Below, piece after piece: positions 2,679-16,741 of a stretch of 64,000 nucleotides of DNA. The DNA lies in NCBI GenBank assembly GCA_038871515.1, contig JAVZHX010000001.1, positions 248,212 through 312,211 of the forward strand, given 5' to 3'. The position numbers and the translations under genes are program-made. The notes below the pieces were generated by a model, which saw only the letters and a list, made by a program, of their open reading frames with translations, made no database searches and was not told the DNA's origin. Every line of letters starts with the position of its first letter. Position 1 is the first letter of the stretch. The stretch comes from Candidatus Micrarchaeia archaeon. GTDB taxonomy: Archaea > Micrarchaeota > Micrarchaeia > Burarchaeales > Fermentimicrarchaeaceae.

Positions 2679-3047
2679 GTGGGTGGTGGATTAGAATTAG
2701 AAGGCCCGGCCATTCGAACATGAAAAGCCGTGAGTTTTGGAGATGCTACAGCTCCTTTTAGCAAGTGCAGAGAAAGGCTTTTAGTAGTGGACGGGCTCAC
2801 GGATCGCTTGCGCTTTCCGCTTACACCCCCACCCTATCAACAGGATCTGCTATCCTGGCCTTGGACTGCCTCGTTTTGAGAATGGCTTCGACCTTAGATG
2901 CTTTCAGGTCTTATCCACTGGCGCGTGGCTGCCCGGCAGTGCTTTTCACAACCGGTAAACTAGAGGCGCCGATTCCCTGTTCCTCTCGTACTCAGGGAAT
3001 CCTGCTCTCAGGCAGTCAGCACTCCTAGGAGATACTACCGAACTGTC

Positions 3048-3098
3048 TTTGTCGCCCCAGATGGCAAGAAAATTAATAGTGAAATTTGCCATCGGGGG
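3048..3098 (-). mobile_element. 51-nt ORF-less mini-intron in 23S (between consensus GTCGCGA and GACAGTTCGG)
   Basis: Insertion inside a universally conserved 23S sequence; contains internal hairpin GATGGCAA...TTGCCATC. Confidence 0.5.
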
Positions 3099-3109
3099 TC
3101 GCGACGTTC

Positions 3110-3144
3110 TTTAGGCTAGAAGGGGTTATGGATAACCACTCCTA
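3110..3144 (-). mobile_element. 35-nt ORF-less mini-intron in 23S (between GCTGGGTTCA and GAACGTCG)
   Basis: Insertion interrupting conserved GAGCTGGGTTTAGAACGTCG; leaves an 11-nt exon (3099-3109) between two introns. Confidence 0.5.
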
Positions 3145-3465
3145 TGAACCCAGCTCGTGTAGGTCTTTAATGGATGAACAACCCAACCCTTGGCGGCTCC
3201 TGCACCGCCAGGATGACCTAGGCCGACAGCGATGTACCAAACCGCGAGGTCGATGTGTACTCTCGCCCGCGACGAGCCTGTTACCCCCGGGGTAGCTTGT
3301 CTGACAGCTTGGACCCTCAACAAAAGGGATACCAAGGTTCGTTAAGCCCCTCTTTCGAGCCTGAATCCCACGCTTTTAAGGATTCAGTCAGCCCTGCATT
3401 TGTCTTTGACCCTTACCGGCGGATTTTCAGCCCCATAGCTAAGGCTATAGTGGATTCTGACCCGC

Positions 3466-4374
3466 CTAAGCAGAGCATTCCCCGGTTTTTAAACCCCGAC
3501 CTATAATTTTTTCCAAATCAGCAAGATCCGCGGTTACTGTTATTGGTAAATCAGAAAATTTATCTAATAAATTTTTATAAGTGTAGATGACAACATTGTA
3601 GCCAATACCAGTAAACACATGGACTTTTTCTTTAGTTCTTTTTATGTGCGGTTCCCAGTCAAATCCTACCACTTCTATTATCAAGTTTTTATTGGGTATG
3701 AGAAAGTCCGGGTAGTACCTAGTGACTTTTTTCTCGTATATAAAATTGATTCTTTTTTCTGTCAAAAATTTTGCTAACTCTATTTCCTTTAGACTTCTAT
3801 ACTGCTTTTCATCGAAAGATATTTTCTTTCTGAAAGATTTTCTGAATATTTTTTCAAGTCGTTTTTGTAACTGGGATTCAGACAACTTGGCAATTGAATT
3901 TCTTCCGCCAAGCCTGCCAATTTCTCTGTAAGGGTTTTCTCCATATTTTTTTGTTAATGCCGCTTTAGCTAGGATGCGTCTTTTTATCTCTATATTTTTA
4001 TTCCTCCTGGTTAATTCATCCAATTTAATTTTGCCTTTTTTACCTAACACACTATGTAAGTTTCTCCCATATTTTTTTCTTAACTTATTAATCCCCTTCT
4101 TGCTAGCAACCCTAAGAATATCCGAAATGCTTGTTTTTTTATAGCCGAAGTCATCAATATTGATTGAAAATTCATCGGCCCATTTTTTTACTAGCATTGC
4201 TGGCATTGTTCTCTCCCCTCTCCAGTACATTTTAAGACAACCATAGGGTAGTGCTAGTTTTTCTGTTAACTCCCTAAGCGTCGTAGAATTAGTTCTTAAA
4301 CTAAGCTCTAGAAAAAATCTCCGTCGCTCACTTTTTGATCTAAATTTTATTCTCTCATTCAATTCAATGTCCAT
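3466..4374 (-). CDS. Intron-encoded protein: N-terminal HTH region plus C-terminal putative PD-(D/E)xK (DUF559/Vsr-like) nuclease; putative homing endonuclease
   Basis: No LAGLIDADG motif; C-terminal YYPDFLIPNKNLIIEVVGFDWEPH resembles restriction-endonuclease-like core; paralogous to ORF 9862-10617 in the 16S intron. Confidence 0.45.
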   Translation of the reverse strand: MDIELNERIKFRSKSERRRFFLELSLRTNSTTLRELTEKLALPYGCLKMYWRGERTMPAMLVKKWADEFSINIDDFGYKKTSISDILRVASKKGINKLRKKYGRNLHSVLGKKGKIKLDELTRRNKNIEIKRRILAKAALTKKYGENPYREIGRLGGRNSIAKLSESQLQKRLEKIFRKSFRKKISFDEKQYRSLKEIELAKFLTEKRINFIYEKKVTRYYPDFLIPNKNLIIEVVGFDWEPHIKRTKEKVHVFTGIGYNVVIYTYKNLLDKFSDLPITVTADLADLEKIIGRGLKTGECSA

Positions 4375-4385
4375 GTTTTGTTATA
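3480..4385 (-). mobile_element. 23S rRNA intron (domain V) carrying a non-LAGLIDADG ORF; boundaries approximate
   Basis: 23S consensus resumes at about 4386 (GGCGGTACGCCCTCGATAAGG) and below about 3480; AT-rich insert with ORF. Confidence 0.55.
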
Positions 4386-5872
4386 GGCTTCCGGGTTTAA
4401 AATCCTTTGGGCGCCCTTGTTTCCTTATCGAGGGCGTACCGCCCCAGCCAAACTATCCATCTGCCGGTGTCCCCTTTCAGGTTAGGAACACAGCAGCTGT
4501 AGAGCGGTGTTTCACTTTCGCATTCACACCCCCCGCAAGAGGTGTTTCGACGCTCCCGCTTACGCTGTGCAACAACCACCGTATCCCAACGACAGACTAT
4601 AGTAAAGCTCCACGGGGTCTTCGTTTCCCCCTAGAAGTCCTCGGCATCTTCACCGAGTAGTGAGTTCACCAGGTCCCAGATAGGGACAGCGGGACGCTCG
4701 TTATGCCCTTCATGCAAGCCACCAATTAAGCGGCGAGGTATTACGCTACCTTAAGAGGGTCAGAGTTACCCCCGCTCTTTGCCGGCGCTTTGCTCCATTG
4801 GACTGGAGTTTGACGTACCGGTAGTGAGCAGGCATCGCCCCCTATACTAAGCCTTTCGGCTTTGCAGGGAGCTGTGTTTTTGGTAAACAGTCGACGTCCC
4901 CTTGTCACTGCGACCTGCGGTTGCAGCTTGCGCCACAACTGCAGGCATGGCTTCTCCCGAAGTTACGCCACTGGATTGCCGAGTTCCCTTACCTGGGTTC
5001 TCCTGACACGCCTTGGCTTCCTCTGCCAGCAGCACCTGTACGAGTTCTAGGTACGAGCTCGTGGAATCGCTGCCAGCTTCCTTTTCACGGGCTCAAGGAA
5101 TCAGCGGAACCACCTTGCGATGGCCTTCCCAGAGTTAGACTGCTTCTCCTCATAACGAGTCTCTGCAGTCTTGCAGAGGTTAGATGAGCTCTCGCTCACT
5201 CCACCTATCCCCAAGCGTCAGAAGCTGGCCTTGTGTCGCCACGTCTACCCACGAGGCACTGGAATCTTAACCAGTTTCCCTTTTGCTCCCGAGTAATTAG
5301 CTGGGAGCTTAGGATCGGCTTACTCTTAACTGACGAACATTGTTAAGAAAACCGTGTGCTATCCGGCGTCCAGGATTCTCACCTGGATTTGCTGTTACTA
5401 ACACCAAGATATTTGTTTCTGACAGGTCCATTGGAACTCACGCCCCAACTTCTGCCCTGCCAGAACACCCCCCTACCAGATGATGCTTGCGGCATCCTCC
5501 GGGGTATCGGCACCTGGCTTAGCCCCGGTAATCTTCAGAGCCTGCACTCTCGACTGGTCCGCTGTTACGCGTTGTTTAAAGGATGGCTGCTTCTGAGCCT
5601 ACCTTCCAGCTGTTTTAGAGTGGAGACTCCTTTGAGATTAGCACTTAGCCAGGATTTAGGGGCCTTAACCTCGGTCTCGGTCGTTCCCGTCCCGGCATGC
5701 TAGCTTACCCAGCACGCCCGACTCCCATCTTCTACGGTGATTGTGAATTCGGAGTTTGAAAAGACAGTAGAGCCTTTCGGCTCCGTTCTGCCTGATCAGT
5801 GCTCTACCTCACAATCCACCTCCAATGGGGCTATCCTAAGGGATACTTCGGGGGGAACCCGCTTTAGCGAGT

Positions 5873-6745
5873 TTAAAGGGCAGCATACAAAGATTCCATA
5901 TCTTTCTTTTTTCTTATAATTGGAAAATCTTTAAATTTGTAAAAATTGTTTATTCCATAAATGTAAAGAGCAAATTTGTTTTTGTATGAATAGATATGGG
6001 AAGTTCGGATACCAACCTCCTTTAAGATTTTTTTGATAAATTGTAGAGATTCTAGATTACTTTGGTAGAAAGCTAATTTTATCTTTCTTATTTTTTTATA
6101 GGTCTGTTTGCTTGTGACGTAGCCTTCTGCATCGAAAAATCCAGCCAGATAATACTTCCAACATTTTGGATTTTCTTTTATTATTCTTGGTGTTTTCCAG
6201 TATTTCTGATCCATCGGCATTTCAAAGATATTTTCAAAGAAGAGGACGATTGGTTTTGAATTTACACGAAGACGGTATGAATTTTTGTCCATGTCTATTT
6301 TTGCTTCAACCAAGAAAATCTCATTGAAAATATCTCGCATTAACTGGATCCACTGCAATGCACCATTACCTGACTGGGTTAAGGCAATTGTATATCGATC
6401 CCCTTCTAATTTTGAAACGGAACCATCTCTCAACACTCCGACAAGATAAGCAAGTTTTGAATCCAGAAATTGGGGGAGTCTGACCCCCTTTTTACTTCTG
6501 GATTTAAATTCAGAAATGTTTTGGAACACTTCATCATAATTTTTCTTGCGTTCGTCTAAGAGGTCAAGTAGATAGTCGAGAGGAGTAACTCCGCTACTCA
6601 AGCGATAATATTTAGTCGATTTTTTGAGTAGAGGAAACTCATCTCCGAACTGTCTTAGTATCTGAGGGTCTACTTTTACGTAGAGATTTTGGTTTTTCAG
6701 ACAACTTAGGTAATTTGGTATTGGTATCTTCCATTTTTCCCACAT
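5873..6745 (-). CDS. LAGLIDADG homing endonuclease (double-motif)
   Basis: Motifs LAYLVGVLRDGSV and YYLAGFFDAEGYV. Confidence 0.8.
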   Translation of the reverse strand: MWEKWKIPIPNYLSCLKNQNLYVKVDPQILRQFGDEFPLLKKSTKYYRLSSGVTPLDYLLDLLDERKKNYDEVFQNISEFKSRSKKGVRLPQFLDSKLAYLVGVLRDGSVSKLEGDRYTIALTQSGNGALQWIQLMRDIFNEIFLVEAKIDMDKNSYRLRVNSKPIVLFFENIFEMPMDQKYWKTPRIIKENPKCWKYYLAGFFDAEGYVTSKQTYKKIRKIKLAFYQSNLESLQFIKKILKEVGIRTSHIYSYKNKFALYIYGINNFYKFKDFPIIRKKKDMESLYAAL

Positions 6746-6800
6746 GTCACTAGATTTATTTGCTGCCCTTATAAACTTATCGCCAAGTTCGATAGGACTA
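5875..6800 (-). mobile_element. 23S rRNA intron (domain II region) with LAGLIDADG ORF; boundaries approximate
   Basis: Flanked by 23S sequences GGTAGAGCACTGATCAGG...GGTTAAGGCCCCTAAAT below and GGTGACCTGCGTGTAGGGG above. Confidence 0.55.
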
Positions 6801-7551
6801 TCACCCCTACACGCAGGTCACCCGAGCGGATATACCAGCACCGGTTGCGGGCCTCCACCAATCTGAGGATTGGCTTCGCCCTGCCCGCGTGTAGATCACA
6901 TTGGCTTCGGGTCTGATGAAAGTGATTTATGGCACTTTCGTACCACCTGCCTCGCCCTTTCGGGTTGCGCAGTCTCGCTTTCGCTCCGCCTTTCGGCTCA
7001 CCACTTCCATCAACTCCTTGGCTCTTGCTTCAAGAAGAACGATGCAACCCTGCTCAATCTCCCGTCGCTCTACATATTTCTACATATCGCTTCCAGGAGA
7101 CCGCATTCCTTTCGGGCCGCACCTTCTGTAGCCACTCAGTTTCAGGCTCTTTTAACTCCCCTTTCGGGGTGCTTTTCAGCGTTCGCTCGCGCTACTTGTG
7201 CGCTATCGGTCTCAGGTTATATTTAGAGTTGGAAGTTGATGCTCCCATGTTCGCGCCCAATACTCAATGGACGCTACTCCGCGCATCCCCTCCCCTCCTG
7301 TTTTTCGCTTACGAGGCTTTCACTCTCTTTGGCAGCGCTTTCCAGCGCACTTCAGCTAGACAGAAGGAGAATGGAATGCATCACATCTCCCACAAGTTGC
7401 CCTGAGGGATTCGAATTGCCTCTGTGTGGCTTTCAGTCGCCCTTACTCACCACATCCCATTTGGTTTCTTTTCCTGCGGGTACTAAGATGTTTCAATTCC
7501 CCGCGTGCTCCTTCACCTCTTTTGGAGGTGAATGATTCGGCAATCCCAGGT

Positions 7552-8469
7552 TCAAGGGCTGCCTGCGCCTATCAGGCTGCCGCAAAGAGATTTTTTAAAG
7601 AGCAAAGAATTTGGGTGGGAAACAGGTATCAATTTTAAAAATTTTAAAATATTCACGCGCGGTCTTTTATTCACATACAATCTAAATGCAAATGAATTTT
7701 TTCTAGGAAGCGACTTGTGTAGAGTCGATATTATTTCTTGCTTTTGAAGTATTTTTCTAATGTCCTCCAAAGGTGGACAGGCAGATTTATCGGACCATGC
7801 CTGATATAAACCTACCCTACCACTTTTCAAACTTTTATCCCCTTCCGCATCATAAAAACCTGCTATGTAATATTTCTGAAATTTGAATGGAGCGTTCAAA
7901 ATTATTTGAGGTGTTGGTTTGAATTTATTTTTGAATTGACCTACCACATCAAGAAAAGCATAGAGCGGCTTTGAATTTAAAGAGAATTCATGGGTGCCTT
8001 TTCTGAATCCTCTATAATGGAGCTTTAGAGCAAATGTTTTTTCTAATAATGGGTTAATTGTGTCAGTTATCCATCGTCTGTCTTTTTGGGATATGTGAAT
8101 CTGGTATTTGTGCGATGACATACCTCCATCTCTGAAAGCACCTAAAATATAACAAAGTTCTGGTGTTAGTTTTTTTACTAATTTCATTGGCTTGTCTGAT
8201 CTTTCACCTCGGATATACCCTATCTCTCTAAAAGTGAAATTCCATAGAGAAGTTTCTAGTTTTGCCAATTTTGAAATCAAATCTAAAGAGGGGTACCTAG
8301 ACTTGCATAGTATACATCTTAGTGTGCTTTCTTTGTAGTTAAGGTCAATCTCGTTTGTTTTTGCCGTTTTTATCAAAACTCTTAATTTTTTTATATATTC
8401 TCGTGTTGGTACTAATCTAAGAGTTGGATACTCCTGCGCCATCGAGGTTAAATAATTGGGTAGTAACAC
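7552..8469 (-). CDS. LAGLIDADG homing endonuclease (double-motif)
   Basis: Motifs LCYILGAFRDGGMS and YYIAGFYDAEGDKS. Confidence 0.8.
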   Translation of the reverse strand: MLLPNYLTSMAQEYPTLRLVPTREYIKKLRVLIKTAKTNEIDLNYKESTLRCILCKSRYPSLDLISKLAKLETSLWNFTFREIGYIRGERSDKPMKLVKKLTPELCYILGAFRDGGMSSHKYQIHISQKDRRWITDTINPLLEKTFALKLHYRGFRKGTHEFSLNSKPLYAFLDVVGQFKNKFKPTPQIILNAPFKFQKYYIAGFYDAEGDKSLKSGRVGLYQAWSDKSACPPLEDIRKILQKQEIISTLHKSLPRKNSFAFRLYVNKRPRVNILKFLKLIPVSHPNSLLFKKSLCGSLIGAGSP

Positions 8470-8500
8470 TATCCAATTTTGGATCCACCGTAATTTAAAG
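7570..8500 (-). mobile_element. 23S rRNA intron near the 5-prime end (about position 110-150) with LAGLIDADG ORF; boundaries approximate
   Basis: Exon TTGAACCTGGGATTGCCGAAT...GGGAATTGAAACATCTTAGTACCCGCAGGAAAAGAAA resumes below about 7556; upstream exon GCTGCGATAAGCCCAGGG at about 8520. Confidence 0.55.
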
Positions 8501-8709
8501 GTTTCATTTCCAATACTCTTCGCAGCAGAACCCTGGGCTTATCGCAGCTTGCCACGGCCTTCCTCGCTACCTGAGCCAAGCCATCCCCTGAGCGGCATGA
8601 CTCACTGCACTCGTTGATGCCAGGAACTGTAGCTTCTTCTCCTCTCACGGCTTCATGAACATCAGCCACTTCATTCAGAAAAACTTTCTGAATTGCATAC
8701 ATGTGCGGA

Positions 8710-8801
8710 TGGACTCGGCGAGATGTTCAGCAGTTTATCTGCTTTTGAACTCGCGGCCTCCTCCTCGCAAAGGAGGCGCTCTACCGCTGAGCTACGAGCC
8801 C
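8710..8801 (-). tRNA. tRNA-Ala(TGC) in the 16S-23S spacer, with an about 20-nt insertion in or next to the T-loop (possible non-canonical intron)
   Basis: Acceptor GGGCTCG/CGAGTCC with G3:U70, D-arm GCTC AGCGGTA GAGC, anticodon arm CCTCC TTTGCGA GGAGG; T-stem GCGAG/CTCGC encloses 27 nt (TTCAAAAGCAGATAAACTGCTGAACAT) instead of 7. Confidence 0.75.
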
Positions 8802-8947
8802 ATAAGAGGCTTCAAGAACATTAAGAGTGAGCTTTCGCCTTACGCTCGCCTTGCACTCACTTCCTCGTTCTCATTTCATAGAACGATTTAAGGAGGTGAT
8901 CTATCCGCAGGTTCCCCTACGGATACCTTGTTACGACTTAGCCCCTC

Positions 8948-9601
8948 TCATGAAGAATTAGCTCGACGAGACCCTTTCGAATCTCGCCTCACTAAAACCT
9001 CACTTGAGTGACTTGACGGGCGGTGTGTGCAAGGAGCGGGGACGTATTCATTGAGCTGAAGAGACACCAAACTTTTAGTTGGGACTGTCATGAAAAACTT
9101 TCTTACCTCTTGTCTACCATTTATATCCAGGCAGACACGTTTCCCACTCGTGAAAGTGGTCACTCGAATGCCGACACTTCGCAACAAAGTTGCGAGAAAA
9201 TCTCTTATTTCCCTAGAAACAACAGCGAACCTGATTCTTGGATATGGTGGTTTGCGCCTCTGGTCTTTCTCAAGCCAACCCTCACTATCAAACCAACCGG
9301 CTGCATAGGCGAGTTGCTCTTCCAGAGAACCACGCCGAATTGCTTGAGGCACAGAAAGTAAATATGACTTTCTTCCGCGAGGAATTTCATACTTCATAGT
9401 GAGCATATTAACTATGTTTATGGACACTAATCTCACTCGGCAGTTCCTCACATCTTCATGGGCTCCATCACTGCGGAACATTAATGCCACCTTTCTACGA
9501 AAGGATGGATTGAAAATACGAATATCAACCCGATTCCTCCTAGTTTCGATATGACCGTCTCCACTCACAAGACCCGCGAGATAAGCTTCTCTGGTACTCA
9601 A
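8948..9601 (-). CDS. LAGLIDADG homing endonuclease (double-motif); the last 35 codons of the ORF track are read-through into the 16S 3-prime exon
   Basis: Motifs LAGLVSGDGHI and LAYAAGWFDSEGWL; tail NEYVPAPCTHRPS... is a translation of conserved 16S exon sequence. Confidence 0.75.
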   Translation of the reverse strand: MSTREAYLAGLVSGDGHIETRRNRVDIRIFNPSFRRKVALMFRSDGAHEDVRNCRVRLVSINIVNMLTMKYEIPRGRKSYLLSVPQAIRRGSLEEQLAYAAGWFDSEGWLEKDQRRKPPYPRIRFAVVSREIRDFLATLLRSVGIRVTTFTSGKRVCLDINGRQEVRKFFMTVPTKSLVSLQLNEYVPAPCTHRPSSHSSEVLVRRDSKGSRRANSS

Positions 9602-9681
9602 ATAATCACCTCTGGTGTCTCCTCATCCGCTCGAGTTCACTCAGAATAGTTCAACTAGTGGACTATTCCGATTGGTGACAA
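9053..9681 (-). mobile_element. 16S rRNA intron (between AGTAATCGC and TGAATACGTCCC) with LAGLIDADG ORF; boundaries approximate
   Basis: 16S consensus AGTAATCGC ends at 9682 and TGAATACGTCCCCGCTCCTTGCACACACCGCCCGTCA resumes at 9052. Confidence 0.55.
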
Positions 9682-9837
9682 GCGATTACTAGGGATTCCA
9701 GCTTCATGAGGGCGAGTTTCAGCCCTCAATCCGAACCTGGGCCGAGTTTGGGGATTAGCTCCTCCTCTCGGAGTGGCAACCCATTGTCTCGACCATTGTA
9801 TGCCACGTGTAGCCCGGGAGATTCAGGGCATACTGAC

Positions 9838-10662
9838 TTCGGCTGAACAATTGGCGTAAGATTAGAAAATATTCTTGAGTTCATGTACTTTCGTACAGAT
9901 ATAATCGTAAGGTCCTTTCAACTCCTCATAATCGCTATGTTGAAGCGGTAGTTCTGTTTCGATAACTGCGATTAATTTAATCTTATTATTTAAGAATTTT
10001 GTTTTATATCCTTGATACGCCAGCTCTCTGATTCTTTCCGTTTGTTTTCTCCTGTTGATGGTGTGCAAACGTTTGCATTGAATACCGATATTAAATTTTT
10101 TTATGTATATATCGACAATTGATTTATTATTTATTGGATAATTTATCTTACATTCTATCCCTTTGTTTTTCAGAAAATCGGCTACTTCTTTTTCCTGAGT
10201 GCTAAATCTTTTTGCTAAGGATCTCTGCGCTCCTAGCTGCCTTGCTTTAGAAGCTTTCTCTGAAAGAGCATTTGCTTTGAACCATCCCTTGGATTCTTGT
10301 TCGGATTTTTTGAAATTATCTCTTATCCTATTTTCAGATATTCGTATGTTTCCGAGTTTTGCTAAGAAATTCTCTGCAGTTCTGATTTGCATTTTCTTTA
10401 CCTTTCCGGATTCGTATTTGTGCACATTCTTGCTGATGCCTAAAAATTTTTCAAATTGTGGTTGCGACATGCTTAGATTTAGTCTTAGTAAAAGAATATA
10501 CCTGGGGTTGTTGGAAAGAGTTTCCGCACTTATTTTTGTGTAATTCTTAGAATCACGTCTGAAATTCGCAATTAAATTTTCTAGTCCATATTTTGTTGTT
10601 GAAATTGCTGGCATAGTTATATTACGGAGCAAGGATATTTTAATCTTACGGACCAATTGTTC
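9838..10662 (-). mobile_element. 16S rRNA intron (between GGGCGACGGTAG and GTCAGTATGCCC), 825 nt, with non-LAGLIDADG ORF
   Basis: Exon ends map precisely to 16S consensus; intron termini are reverse-complementary (TGAACAATTGG / CCAATTGTTCA) as expected for a bulge-helix-bulge splice motif. Confidence 0.7.
9862..10617 (-). CDS. Intron-encoded protein: XRE-like HTH plus putative PD-(D/E)xK (DUF559/Vsr-like) nuclease; putative homing endonuclease
   Basis: HTH-like LSMSQPQFEKFLGISKNVHKYESG; C-terminal VADFLKNKGIECKINYPINNKSIVDIYIKKFNIGIQCK parallels ORF 3466-4374; ORF-track start at 10710 lies in the exon, first in-intron Met at 10617. Confidence 0.45.
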   Translation of the reverse strand, partial: TMPAISTTKYGLENLIANFRRDSKNYTKISAETLSNNPRYILLLRLNLSMSQPQFEKFLGISKNVHKYESGKVKKMQIRTAENFLAKLGNIRISENRIRDNFKKSEQESKGWFKANALSEKASKARQLGAQRSLAKRFSTQEKEVADFLKNKGIECKINYPINNKSIVDIYIKKFNIGIQCKRLHTINRRKQTERIRELAYQGYKTKFLNNKIKLIAVIETELPLQHSDYEELKGPYDYICTKVHELKNIF

Positions 10663-10747
10663 ATCTACCGTCGCCCTCTCCTTCCTCCTACTTAACGTAG
10701 GCAGTCCCAACAGAGTGCTTCATCTCCGGAGAGATGAATCGCAACTG

Positions 10748-11275
10748 TCAGCAAGGGTCTCGCTCGTTTCCGGACCGCATGAGTGCTTTTTGGGAGTGCT
10801 TGAGAAATTTTTTAACAAATGCAAAAAACTCTTTTGGAGTAAGAATTGCAAGCTTTCCTTCTATGAACCTTGCTCTGAACCCCAAAAGCTCCAGAAGCAT
10901 CTGCTCCTTTTCTGATGCTCTTGCGAGGTAAGGAGTATTTCCTTTTACTCCGCCGCAGGAGTCAAACAAACCTGCTAGGTATGAAGCAGAGTAGTCGTTC
11001 TTCTTCCTGAAAACATCAAGCTGATTTCTCTCAGCTTCCTCAAAGAATTTTCTGTATGCTGAATGGTAAAAGTAAATTTCATTTTCATTCAGCTGAATTT
11101 TCTGAGGAGGAATTTTGAGAGTTTTCAGCGCTTCTTTCAGGAAAATCTCGCGTATCTCTCCGCTTCCTCTTATTCCAACTCCTCTGGAAGCTTTCCTTCC
11201 TTTCCATAAACCAATCACATACGCCAGTTCAGGCGTCATTTTTATTTTCATCTCTCTCACTCCGGATGCACCCAT
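10748..11275 (-). CDS. LAGLIDADG homing endonuclease (small, double-motif)
   Basis: Motifs LAYVIGLWKG and YLAGLFDSCGGV; ORF reads about 20 nt into the downstream exon. Confidence 0.75.
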   Translation of the reverse strand: MGASGVREMKIKMTPELAYVIGLWKGRKASRGVGIRGSGEIREIFLKEALKTLKIPPQKIQLNENEIYFYHSAYRKFFEEAERNQLDVFRKKNDYSASYLAGLFDSCGGVKGNTPYLARASEKEQMLLELLGFRARFIEGKLAILTPKEFFAFVKKFLKHSQKALMRSGNERDPC

Positions 11276-11283
11276 GCGGTTTA
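10769..11283 (-). mobile_element. 16S rRNA intron (between GTTAAGTCCGGTAAAC and GAGCGAGACCC), about 515 nt, LAGLIDADG ORF
   Basis: Exon consensus on both sides; repeated CCGGTAAAC / CCGGAAAC at the junctions. Confidence 0.65.
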
Positions 11284-11326
11284 CCGGACTTAACCGGACA
11301 CTTCACAGCACGAGCTGACGATGGCC

Positions 11327-11432
11327 TTGTGCGAGAACGTCGCTTCTCCTTATAATCATAAATTGACGAGTGTCTGAGGACATTCAGAACAATATTCTTT
11401 ATATTTGTGTCTAATTAAGAGCGGCGTTCTCT
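11327..11432 (-). mobile_element. 16S mini-intron, about 106 nt, ORF-less (between GGTGGTGCAT and GGCCATCGTCAGCTCGTG)
   Basis: Insertion inside universally conserved GGTGGTGCATGGCCGTCGTCAGCTCGTG; AT-rich. Confidence 0.6.
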
Positions 11433-11535
11433 ATGCACCACCTCTCGGCTCGTCAGGCAAGATCTTCAGTCTGGCCTTCATACTGCCGTCGCTCCCGGTG
11501 ATATTCCCGGCGTTGAATCCAATTGAACCGCAGCT

Positions 11536-11608
11536 TGTGGAACTCCAACCCCTCGTTTACACTAACCGACATATACGCGTCGGAATTGGGTCAAGGGTTT
11601 GGAATTAA
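11536..11608 (-). mobile_element. 16S mini-intron, about 73 nt (between GGGGTGGA and AGCTGCGGTTCAATTGG)
   Basis: Interrupts conserved GGGGTGGAGCCTGCGGTTTAATTGGA. Confidence 0.55.
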
Positions 11609-11622
11609 TCCACCCCTTGTGG

Positions 11623-11651
11623 TATGGGAAACAATAAGAATACTTATTGTT
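11623..11651 (-). mobile_element. 16S mini-intron, about 29 nt (between GGGGGAGCA and CCACAAGGGG)
   Basis: Interrupts conserved GGCGGGGGAGCACCACAAGGGGTGGA; palindromic AACAATAAGTATTCTTATTGTT. Confidence 0.55.
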
Positions 11652-11667
11652 TGCTCCCCCGCCAATT

Positions 11668-11698
11668 CAGGAAGAACTAGCAATTGCTAATTCTTTTT
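11668..11698 (-). mobile_element. 16S mini-intron, about 31 nt (between AAAGG and AATTGGCGGGGG)
   Basis: Interrupts conserved AAACTTAAAGGAATTGGCGGGGGAGCAC; near-palindrome AAGAATTAGCAATTGCTAGTTCTT; only a 16-nt exon (11652-11667) separates it from the previous intron. Confidence 0.55.
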
Positions 11699-11724
11699 CC
11701 TTTAAGTTTCAACCTTGCGGCCGT

Positions 11725-11765
11725 AATTGGGGAAGCCCGCGCCGATAAATTTCGGTTAGGCTTCT
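11725..11765 (-). mobile_element. 16S mini-intron, about 41 nt (between CTGGGGAG and ACGGCCGCAAGG)
   Basis: Interrupts conserved GCCGCCTGGGGAGTACGGCCGCAAGG. Confidence 0.5.
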
Positions 11766-11792
11766 CTCCCCAGGCGGCAGACTTAACACCTA

Positions 11793-11833
11793 CGCTACGG
11801 CACTGCCGTAACCCTAAGTTACGGCAACACCAC
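11793..11833 (-). mobile_element. 16S mini-intron, about 41 nt (between GCAGACT and TAGGTGTT)
   Basis: Interrupts conserved GATGCGGACTAGGTGTTGGG; internal hairpin TGCCGTAAC...GTTACGGCA. Confidence 0.5.
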
Positions 11834-11866
11834 AGTCTGCATAATTTACTGCTAGGGCTACTCGGG

Positions 11867-11897
11867 TGTTTAGTAACTCGAGAAGGTGCTCGAATCA
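11867..11897 (-). mobile_element. 16S mini-intron, about 31 nt (between GGATTAGATA and CCCGAGTAGCC)
   Basis: Interrupts the universally conserved 790-loop sequence GGATTAGATACCCGGGTAGTCC; internal hairpin TCGAG...CTCGA. Confidence 0.55.
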
Positions 11898-12873
11898 TAT
11901 CTAATCCGATTCGTTCTCCTAGCCTTCGTCCCTCACTGTCGGACGCGTTTTGGCCAAGCGCCTTCGCCACTGGGAGTCCTCACAGGATTAACGGATTTTA
12001 CCCCTACCCCGTGAGTACTCTTGGCCTCCCCCGCTCCCAAGCCCGCCAGTATTCTCTGCACTCCTTCGAGTTGAGCCCGAAGATTTCACAGAGAACTTAG
12101 CAGGCCAGCTACGGACTCTTTAGGCCCAATATACGTGGATACCACTCGAGCTGCCGGTGTTACCGCGGCGGCTGTCACCGGTCTTACCCAGCTCTTATTC
12201 CACAAGCTCCTTAAGCTTGTGAAAAGATGCTCGCGTGGAGCATCACTCAGAATCCCCTCGTCACGCTTGCGCGCATTGCGAAGGTTTCGCGCCTGCTGCA
12301 TCCCGTAGGACTGGAGCCCTTGTCTCAGTGCTCCTCTGGGGGCGCCAACTCCCATTGCCCCCACCGATTATCGGCTTGGTGGGCCGTTACCCCACCAACT
12401 ACCTAATCGGAAGCAGTCTCATCCTAAGGCGGAAATGGCTGCATTTCGCCATTCCTTTTGGGCTATGAAGCGTTCCAGCATCCATAGCCTATGTGGTATT
12501 AGCCTCAGTTTCCCGAGGTTATCCCCCTCCTTAGGGTAGATTGACTACTCGCTACTCAGCCGTACGCCACCCCTCCTAGCAGAAGGGGTAGACTTGCATG
12601 GCTTAGTCGGATTCTGATAGCAGTACCCTCCAGCAGGATCAACTGGAGTTTTTCACGTTTAGAGCACACTTCCGCAAGTTCGGCGTAAGCACCACTAATC
12701 GCTCACTTCTCCTGTTCTTGAAGCCTCAGTCAAACCCAAACCTGCTTGGATTTCCATCAGATTGTGTGCTATAGAGGAAAGGTATCTATCACAGCACGAA
12801 ATGAGAATTCGCGCTCCATTTACGCCGGAGTCTATAGCGTCCGCACGGCGAATAAAGATTATACACACTCTTA

Positions 12874-16207: not shown

Positions 16208-16741
16208 TTAAGGAAACTTCACCTCATGAACATTCTCATAAATCGGCCCTTCTGGAGTTAAAGTGCTTTTCTTCAATATTATTCTATCAACTATGCACTC
16301 CCCAAATTCACTTTGGGAGTTTTCTTCCAAAAATTCATTAAGCGCCCCTTTATCTTTCAGAAATTTCACCCTTGCAAGCGTTATGTGAGGTGAAAACTCC
16401 TCCTTCTTAAAACCAAGCTGGGAAAGTTCCTTTCCAAGCTCTGAGTGTATTTTTTTAAGCTCGGGCGCTTCAACACCAACCCAGATAACTCTTATGTAGT
16501 TTCTGCTTGGAAATGCACCAACTCCCCTGCAACTAACCTCAAACTTGCCGAAGTTCATTTTGTTCATTGCTTGAATAACCCTCTCTTTCATTCTCTCATC
16601 AATTTCCCCAAGGAAGAAAAGAGTTAGATGTAAATTTTCTTTTTCAACAAGCTTCACCCCTTCAATTGAGAGATTCTTCTGAAGTGTTGCGATTTTTTCC
16701 CTTAACTCATCGCTCACCTCAACTGCAATGAAAGCACGCAT
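16208..16741 (-). CDS. 2H phosphoesterase / RNA 2-prime,3-prime-cyclic phosphodiesterase (LigT/ThpR family)
   Basis: Two HxT/S motifs (HLTLFFLG and HITLARV). Confidence 0.8.
   Translation of the reverse strand: MRAFIAVEVSDELREKIATLQKNLSIEGVKLVEKENLHLTLFFLGEIDERMKERVIQAMNKMNFGKFEVSCRGVGAFPSRNYIRVIWVGVEAPELKKIHSELGKELSQLGFKKEEFSPHITLARVKFLKDKGALNEFLEENSQSEFGECIVDRIILKKSTLTPEGPIYENVHEVKFP

Follow-up and report, generated by a model that had tools for sequence, protein, structure and literature searches.

Introduction

The closest described counterparts of the element discussed here are two introns of ARMAN-2 (Ca. Micrarchaeum acidiphilum), located at position 59/60 of pre-tRNA-Cys(GCA) and pre-tRNA-Pro(GGG) and marked by bulge-helix-bulge (BHB) motifs, relaxed in tRNA-Cys and strict (hBHBh') in tRNA-Pro, in an organism whose EndA is of broad specificity (Fujishima et al. 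2011, PMC3239211). The present work concerns the tRNA-Ala(UGC) gene lying between the 16S and 23S rRNA genes in a 64,000-nucleotide stretch of the genome of a Candidatus Micrarchaeia archaeon (GCA_038871515.1, contig JAVZHX010000001.1, positions 248,212 to 312,211; this whole stretch is hereafter called the window), whose T arm contains surplus nucleotides. It is very probably a spacer tRNA gene with an intron, within an rRNA operon transcribed as one unit in a member of the Micrarchaeota; to standard tRNA finders it looks absent or broken, but judged by its sequence it is neither. The insert resembles the ARMAN-2 introns in phylum, in its 59/60 position within the T loop and in motif class, being strict hBHBh' like that of ARMAN-2 tRNA-Pro. 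It differs from them in its host, a spacer tRNA-Ala(UGC), whereas the tRNA-Cys and tRNA-Pro of ARMAN-2 are not described as rRNA-spacer genes, and also in being fixed in a Fermentimicrarchaeum-like clade and in recurring in genomes named Woesearchaeota and Nanoarchaeota.

Position 59/60 belongs to the known non-canonical sites of tRNA introns (PMC4090602), and Thermoproteales and other Crenarchaeota carry BHB introns at many such sites, including 53/54, 56/57 and 59/60 (reviewed in PMC4090602). Like those introns, the one described here would depend on a BHB motif and is missed by standard tRNA finders; unlike them, it is found in another superphylum and its motif is strict, whereas many crenarchaeal motifs are relaxed. 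Non-canonical crenarchaeal tRNA introns were reportedly treated by Marck and Grosjean in 2003 and by Sugahara et al. in 2008, and, to our knowledge, crenarchaeal rRNA operons are generally devoid of a spacer tRNA.

The order 16S - tRNA-Ala(UGC) - 23S is shared with Euryarchaeota such as Haloferax volcanii and Methanococcus maripaludis, in which the BHBs of the processing stems are cut by EndA and the tRNA is released by RNase P and RNase Z (PMC7714728, PMC7038931, PMC10515664); in Haloferax EndA processes rRNA BHB motifs both in vivo and in vitro (PMC7714728). In contrast to the operons of these two species, the tRNA-Ala of the window has a BHB of its own, and EndA would be needed within as well as around the tRNA. 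We know of no interruption in the spacer tRNA-Ala of H. volcanii or M. maripaludis. Archaeal rRNA genes themselves harbour BHB introns with LAGLIDADG homing endonuclease genes, both in Thermoproteales (PMC4496867) and, alongside group I introns, in DPANN (PMC6125680). The tRNA-Ala intron would share the splicing chemistry and the motif with them, and at least four rRNA BHB introns lie on the same transcript; unlike the rRNA introns, which are 100-1000 nt long, often mobile and equipped with open reading frames (ORFs), it has only 20 nt, codes for nothing and shows no sign of mobility. Within a limited body of literature, no report of an intron in the spacer tRNA-Ala of Micrarchaeota or other DPANN was found, nor any description of its fixation in a clade or its recurrence in 45 species genomes. 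Elements of this kind are well known, and the present case is a useful point of annotation and comparison, with no new mechanism.

The Spacer tRNA-Ala Gene and Its Predicted Intron

The tRNA-Ala gene is located between the 3' end of the 16S rRNA gene (8891) and the 5' end of the 23S rRNA gene (~8612), on the same strand as both and only about 100 nt away from the latter, and is thus a spacer tRNA. On the minus strand, from 8801 to 8710, it reads GGGCUCG UA GCUC AGCGGUA GAGC G CCUCC UUUGCGA GGAGG AGGCC GCGAG UUCAAAAGCAGAUAAACUGCUGAACAU CUCGC CGAGUCC A. All four stems, including the 7-bp acceptor stem, are perfectly paired; the alanine identity can be read directly from the G3:U70 pair, the anticodon UGC and the discriminator A73, and the CCA end is not encoded. 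Between the two strands of the T stem, GCGAG/CUCGC, lie 27 nt where 7 are expected, a surplus of 20 nt. Direct reading thus agrees exactly with an earlier note on this DNA as to the coordinates, the canonical cloverleaf, the G3:U70 pair and the 20 extra nucleotides within the T stem. The folding energy of the 92-mer is -45.5 kcal/mol (z = -5.3 against 200 shuffles). The host is a Micrarchaeia archaeon (Micrarchaeota, DPANN), as judged by its adenylosuccinate synthetase (PurA) and by its archaeal rRNAs (Rfam).

The surplus nucleotides, together with the T arm, fit the strict hBHBh' geometry: the 5-bp T stem serves as the outer helix, the central helix is 4/4, the inner helix has 4 bp, and there are two 3-nt bulges (AA/A and CA/U). 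The central helix would be formed in the precursor by the T-loop bases U54-A57 pairing with UGAA of the intron. The hairpin GCAG-AUAAA-CUGC pointed out in the earlier note is indeed present, but the defining feature is the full hBHBh' motif and not the hairpin alone. By the rule that cleavage falls after the second nucleotide of each bulge, the segment 8743..8724 would be excised; its deletion joins A59 to U60 and gives a T loop UUCAAAU of 7 nt within a 72-nt tRNA, called by ARAGORN as tRNA-Ala(tgc). The same rule could be checked in this very operon, where it matched to the nucleotide four rRNA intron borders defined by independent alignment to intron-poor relatives. The BHB conformer of the T arm is only 2.3 kcal/mol above the minimum free energy of the arm, and out of 2,000,000 random 20-mers placed at this site, 612 yield both the central and the inner helix. 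All the sequence features by which a BHB tRNA intron at 59/60 is recognised are found in the element.

Conservation in the Fermentimicrarchaeum-like Clade

The PurA encoded beside the operon matches a protein of a Candidatus Micrarchaeia archaeon MAG at 100% identity and its counterpart in Ca. Fermentimicrarchaeum limneticum at 75%. Three relatives, with PurA identities of 84%, 75% and 73%, retain the gene order purA - tRNA-Thr - ACT - DUF4870 - 16S - tRNA-Ala - 23S. In the spacers of all three the same partial Rfam tRNA match is present; their inserts at the identical site measure 20, 23 and 25 nt, and UUCAAA/A and UGAACA/U are unchanged. A scan of metagenomes with the exact flanks of the clade, allowing 0-30 nt at the insert site, retrieved 12 contigs, each with 20-25 nt and none intron-less (0/12). 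Altogether, the clade is represented by 16 contigs with nine intron variants, again without an intron-less example.

Across the nine variants the exons differ at two positions only, and the four stems and the G3:U70 pair remain perfect. The bulges are invariant and the central helix is altered by a single U.G wobble, while the inner helix varies in length and sequence with its pairing retained; its fifth pair, U-A in three cases and C-G in three others, is a compensatory change. The 20-nt insert of the window is also found, identical, in independent assemblies of other samples (L001, L068, L074 and L075). In more distant Micrarchaeota the purA neighbourhoods (L076-L079) have lost the synteny and have no adjacent rRNA operon, and they are uninformative as to the depth of the intron.

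Distribution in Other DPANN Genomes and Covariation

The species genomes of GTDB were scanned for archaeal-type tRNA-Ala(UGC) genes whose T arm was longer by 5-35 bases in its 3' half. The scan gave 57 matches, 45 of them fully paired in the acceptor and T stems; the remaining 12 were ordinary tRNAs followed by a chance downstream CNNGTCCA, with acceptor or T stems unpaired, and were discarded. The 45 genomes are mostly named Woesearchaeota or Nanoarchaeota, with three Micrarchaeota among them. All 45 are spacer tRNAs, being preceded by a 16S 3' end at a distance of 17-220 nt. Their inserts span 11-35 nt, compared with 20-25 nt in the clade; 59/60 is the best register in 41 of the 45, and in 36 of those 41 the central helix is 4/4.

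Nucleotide 57 and its partner in the intron form A-U in 27 of the 45 tRNAs, G-C in 10 and G.U in one, and are unpaired in seven; among the 43 distinct BHB cores the corresponding counts are 27 for A-U and eight for G-C. When pairs were counted in a fixed register over these 43 cores, 90.2% of the cells were paired, compared with 75.1% in shuffles, and covariation amounted to 0.432 versus 0.159, a value reached by none of the 500 shuffles. Slid controls, in which the partners were shifted by one to three columns, gave 25-62% of paired cells. In the inner helix, both-side changes occur at 4/4 positions. The non-canonical T-loop intron suggested in the earlier note is thus supported by the BHB features at 59/60 and by a site conserved, with covariation, in relatives.

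It is also worth mentioning that seven of the intron-bearing contigs (L022, L028, L042, L008, L011, L012 and L036) belong to metagenome-assembled genomes (MAGs) labelled unclassified bacterium, Gammaproteobacteria, Parcubacteria or 'uncultured Methanosarcinales'. The spacers of these contigs match the archaeal 16S 3' end of the window and contain a DPANN-typical intron-bearing tRNA-Ala; the bacterial and Methanosarcinales labels may be due to mis-binning or mislabelling. Were any of them truly from Methanosarcinales, an intron-bearing spacer tRNA-Ala there would be notable.

Weighing of the Evidence and Alternative Explanations

Several points weigh against an intron at 59/60. Thermodynamic folding gives a minimum-energy structure devoid of the 4-bp central helix, although it is usual for BHB motifs that their short central helix is missed by nearest-neighbour folding. 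BHB-shaped patterns are not rare: the window contains 45 of them (both strands, G.U allowed) versus about 16 in shuffles, and because such patterns are common by chance the motif alone is weak evidence and was rejected as stand-alone proof; what places the insert beyond chance is its exact register and its conservation in relatives. The T-stem pairing of the 45-genome set is a selection filter and not independent evidence, the central and inner helices being unfiltered. Finally, genes for EndA and RtcB were found neither in the 64-kb window nor in the loci of relatives examined, where a tblastn search for EndA with the M. jannaschii protein (matched to PDB 1A79) as the query returned nothing. 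With the catalytic unit of ARMAN-2 EndA as the query, 47 proteins of PF01974, the EndA catalytic-domain family in Pfam, were retrieved; a few of them are named Micrarchaeia or Micrarchaeota, and none of those from Micrarchaeia MAGs could be attributed to this genome or to Fermentimicrarchaeum.

Instead of being spliced, the 27-nt T loop might be retained, with a mature tRNA-Ala that keeps the extra hairpin and works as it is; that no member of the clade is free of the insert would also be consistent with such a functional element. The parts of the insert that are conserved are, however, those recognised by EndA, i.e., the UGAA strand and the bulges, while the distal hairpin has diverged in sequence and changed in length, within the clade as well as across DPANN. 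Moreover, U54-A57 would be sequestered in the precursor fold, which is incompatible with the T-loop/D-loop elbow, universal in tRNA. Precise removal of the insert restores the canonical UUCAAAU, and introns at 59/60 are documented in this phylum (PMC3239211); a retained loop is considered very unlikely. It is hardly credible that the gene is a decaying or disrupted pseudogene bearing an insertion scar, with another tRNA-Ala(UGC) gene being the functional one. The failure of ARAGORN and the partial, mis-paired Rfam match would agree with such a state, but in a pseudogene the exons would change no more slowly than the insert, and here the exons are invariant but for two positions across nine intron variants in 16 contigs, the stems and G3:U70 are perfect, and the arrangement is maintained in 45 species genomes.

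A different splice register has to be considered as well, since G53 can also pair with a C of the intron. The central helix would then be GUUC/GAAC, and the BHB scan does list this variant (central 4/4, outer 4, inner 5), with a 22-nt intron at 8744..8723 and a 70-nt tRNA. The resulting 5-nt T loop, UUCAA, is nevertheless unlike that of any canonical tRNA, and the intron C on which the variant depends, the first base of bulge 2, changes among A, U and C in other DPANN, the 59/60 register being conserved instead, so that the shifted register appears extremely improbable. As the window derives from a MAG, a chimeric or duplicated stretch introduced by assembly or sequencing could also be suspected; the identical insert in the independent assemblies L001, L068, L074 and L075, along with variants from many other sources, effectively refutes such an artefact and leaves it almost no probability. 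A group I self-splicing intron was rejected as the identity of the insert, which is 20 nt long and has no Rfam match; no group I intron match was found by Rfam anywhere in the operon, even at permissive E-value thresholds. Group I introns are known in bacterial tRNA genes and in DPANN rRNA genes, and they have a conserved catalytic core, P3-P9, and are typically longer than 200 nt.

Annotation by Standard Finders

ARAGORN, proposed as a check in the earlier note, misses the tRNA-Ala in the unspliced sequence, also with the intron options -i and -i116, and calls it once 8743..8724 is deleted; the intron model of this program covers the anticodon loop only. The Rfam tRNA match is partial, 56 nt at 8746..8801 with 40 bits, and mis-paired: the insert forces an alignment in which CGAGUUC, part of the T arm, wrongly takes the place of the acceptor 3' strand and is paired with the 5' strand. 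For Ca. Fermentimicrarchaeum limneticum, ARAGORN reports a tRNA-Ala(tgc) of 83 nt (L003 14626..14708) that stops within the 23-nt intron. The gene model is wrong, and the error may recur in automated annotation of this genome. In another relative, a 169-nt Rfam tRNA match (L005 20397..20565), located downstream of the rRNA operon and having no counterpart in the window, is presumably another intron-containing tRNA missed by ARAGORN.

To standard finders, then, genomes of Micrarchaeota and other DPANN will seem to be without tRNA-Ala(UGC) or to have a broken copy of it. Such mis-annotation affects the tRNA counts that serve as quality criteria for MAGs.

The rRNA Operon

The features of the tRNA-Ala gene and of the surrounding operon are collected in Table 1. 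Both processing stems carry a strict BHB, with an outer helix of 15 bp in the 16S stem and 11 bp in the 23S stem. The 3' strand of the outer helix of the 16S stem ends 4 nt before the 5' end of tRNA-Ala; downstream, some 75 nt separate the 3' end of the tRNA from the start of the outer helix of the 23S stem BHB. As in other archaea, such stems predict circular pre-rRNA intermediates. The flanking of tRNA-Ala by BHB-bearing stems also lends support to the view of the earlier note that the tRNA would be processed together with the rRNA transcript. One transcript contains at least seven BHB sites: two in the processing stems, at least four of rRNA introns and that of the tRNA intron.

Table 1. 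Features of the spacer tRNA-Ala gene and of the rRNA operon (coordinates of the window).
Feature	Coordinates	Strand	Basis
Pre-tRNA-Ala(UGC), 92 nt, rRNA-operon spacer tRNA	8710..8801	minus	direct reading, cloverleaf, partial Rfam tRNA match
Predicted 5' exon, 58 nt, tRNA positions 1-59, ending ...GCGAG UUCAAA	8744..8801	minus	BHB geometry; joined exons called by ARAGORN
Predicted BHB intron, 20 nt, at position 59/60, A GCAG AUAAA CUGC UGAA CA	8724..8743	minus	BHB geometry; site holds 20-25 nt in all clade relatives
Predicted 3' exon, 14 nt: U60, T-stem 3' strand CUCGC, acceptor 3' strand CGAGUCC, discriminator A	8710..8723	minus	BHB geometry
Central BHB helix, exon strand U54 U55 C56 A57	8746..8749	minus	pairs with 8726..8729
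Central BHB helix, intron strand UGAA	8726..8729	minus	pairing, covariation
Bulge 1, A58 A59 / A; predicted 5' cut follows its second nucleotide	8743..8745	minus	BHB scan
Bulge 2, C A / U60; predicted 3' cut follows its second nucleotide	8723..8725	minus	BHB scan
Inner helix h' and loop, GCAG AUAAA CUGC	8730..8742	minus	folding; pairing kept in relatives
16S rRNA gene, ~3.76 kb owing to several insertions	8891..12649	minus	Rfam; alignment to relatives
23S rRNA gene, first exon 83 nt (8612..8530), then 959-nt intron	2761..8612	minus	alignment to L003/L005/L001
Pre-16S stem BHB, 5' half: outer 12727..12713, central GGAG, bulge AA/G, cut after 12707	12706..12727	minus	
Pre-16S stem BHB, 3' half: bulge UA/A, cut after 8822, 15-nt outer strand 8820..8806	8806..8823	minus	
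Pre-23S stem BHB, 5' half: outer 8633..8623, central UGGC, bulge AU/C, cut after 8617	8616..8633	minus	
Pre-23S stem BHB, 3' half: central GCUA, bulge AA/A, cut after 2757, outer 2755..2745	2745..2762	minus	
959-nt BHB intron in 23S, LAGLIDADG ORF 7552..8469 (Pfam LAGLIDADG_3), inner helix 12 bp	7571..8529	minus	BHB at homology-defined junction
827-nt BHB intron in 16S, ORF 9862..10710 (weak restriction-endonuclease-like match), inner helix 12 bp	9838..10664	minus	BHB at homology-defined junction
915-nt BHB intron in 23S, LAGLIDADG ORF 5873..6745	5864..6778	minus	BHB at homology-defined junction
106-nt BHB intron in 16S	11327..11432	minus	BHB at homology-defined junction

The start of the 23S rRNA gene given by Rfam, 7636, is misleading: alignment to relatives puts the true 5' end near 8612, and the Rfam start lies about 1 kb too far downstream because of the intron located 83 nt into the gene. 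A weak 5.8S-like match at 8464..8599 agrees with the detached 5' exon, and the LAGLIDADG ORF that at first sight seems to sit in the 16S-23S spacer is actually within the 23S intron. Rfam-style annotation of the 23S rRNA therefore misplaces the gene start here.

Compared with that of Ca. Fermentimicrarchaeum limneticum, the operon contains about nine extra blocks, besides one block of about 665 nt common to both. Four of the insertions have strict BHB junctions (Table 1); for the other six (~40, 133, 665, 622, 959 and 86 nt), neither a strict nor a relaxed BHB is convincing at the borders given by alignment. Three of the ORFs in the blocks are of the LAGLIDADG type, the third one, at 8948..9601, being additional to the two in Table 1; weak nuclease-like matches were obtained for 3466..4374 (DUF559-like) and 9862..10710, and the ORF 10748..11275, common to relatives, belongs to no family. 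A strict BHB-shaped element of 38 nt is present at 9635..9673 on the minus strand, its 5' cut coinciding with the 5' border (9673) of the insertion of about 622 nt in 16S; it may have arisen by chance or may belong to an intron that is nested or removed stepwise. Outside the operon, an IS605 OrfB/TnpB (Cas12f-like) gene is situated directly upstream of purA in one relative (L004 8857..9984) and is absent at the equivalent position of the window.

Proposed Maturation of tRNA-Ala

The maturation route proposed for this tRNA-Ala is modelled on known archaeal RNA processing (PMC4090602, PMC7714728, PMC3239211). EndA would cleave within each bulge to give ends with a 2',3'-cyclic phosphate and a 5'-OH, and a ligase of the RtcB type would join A59 to U60, the junction reading ...GAGUUCAAA + UCUCGCC. 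Ligation would restore the 7-nt T loop and free U54, U55 and C56 for the T-loop/D-loop elbow, which is expected to form only after splicing, U54-A57 being base-paired until then. The 72-nt body would be completed by RNase P, RNase Z and the CCA-adding enzyme, and AlaRS would read G3:U70. The same EndA would be expected to cut the BHBs of the flanking 16S and 23S processing stems and those of the rRNA introns, the maturation of tRNA-Ala being one of at least seven predicted BHB events on a single transcript.

Among splicing endonucleases, those of the (alpha-beta)2 and epsilon2 types cut non-canonical introns, the epsilon2 form being found in ARMAN-2 and Mancarchaeum (PMC5829648). In the window, a protein of the LigT-like 2H phosphoesterase/2'-5' RNA ligase family is encoded at 16208..16741 on the minus strand, and its position in the neighbourhood is kept in all the close relatives (L001, L003 and L005). 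Members of this family act on 2',3'-cyclic phosphate RNA ends, the type of end that EndA leaves.

Significance for DPANN Archaea

In every recovered member of the clade the intron is present at the same site and always in the spacer copy, and in the operon of the window and of its close relatives the intron-bearing tRNA-Ala lies immediately beside the processing stems. This pattern is compatible with a coupling of tRNA splicing to rRNA processing; that splicing imposes an order on the processing steps is speculation. We regard it as unlikely that the 59/60 intron is an ancient, selectively maintained feature of DPANN spacer tRNA-Ala genes that makes their maturation dependent on EndA. If it were, the locking of U54-A57 in the BHB would delay the tRNA elbow until the endonuclease acts on the transcript, and release of the tRNA by RNase P and RNase Z would be coupled to, or ordered with, the excision of pre-16S and pre-23S.

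With so many predicted BHB events on one rRNA transcript, this reduced-genome organism would have to lean heavily on the EndA/RtcB pathway. The 59/60 intron recurs in spacer tRNA-Ala genes of several DPANN lineages, 45 species genomes in all, and its phylogenetic mapping could separate inheritance from repeated gain within DPANN.

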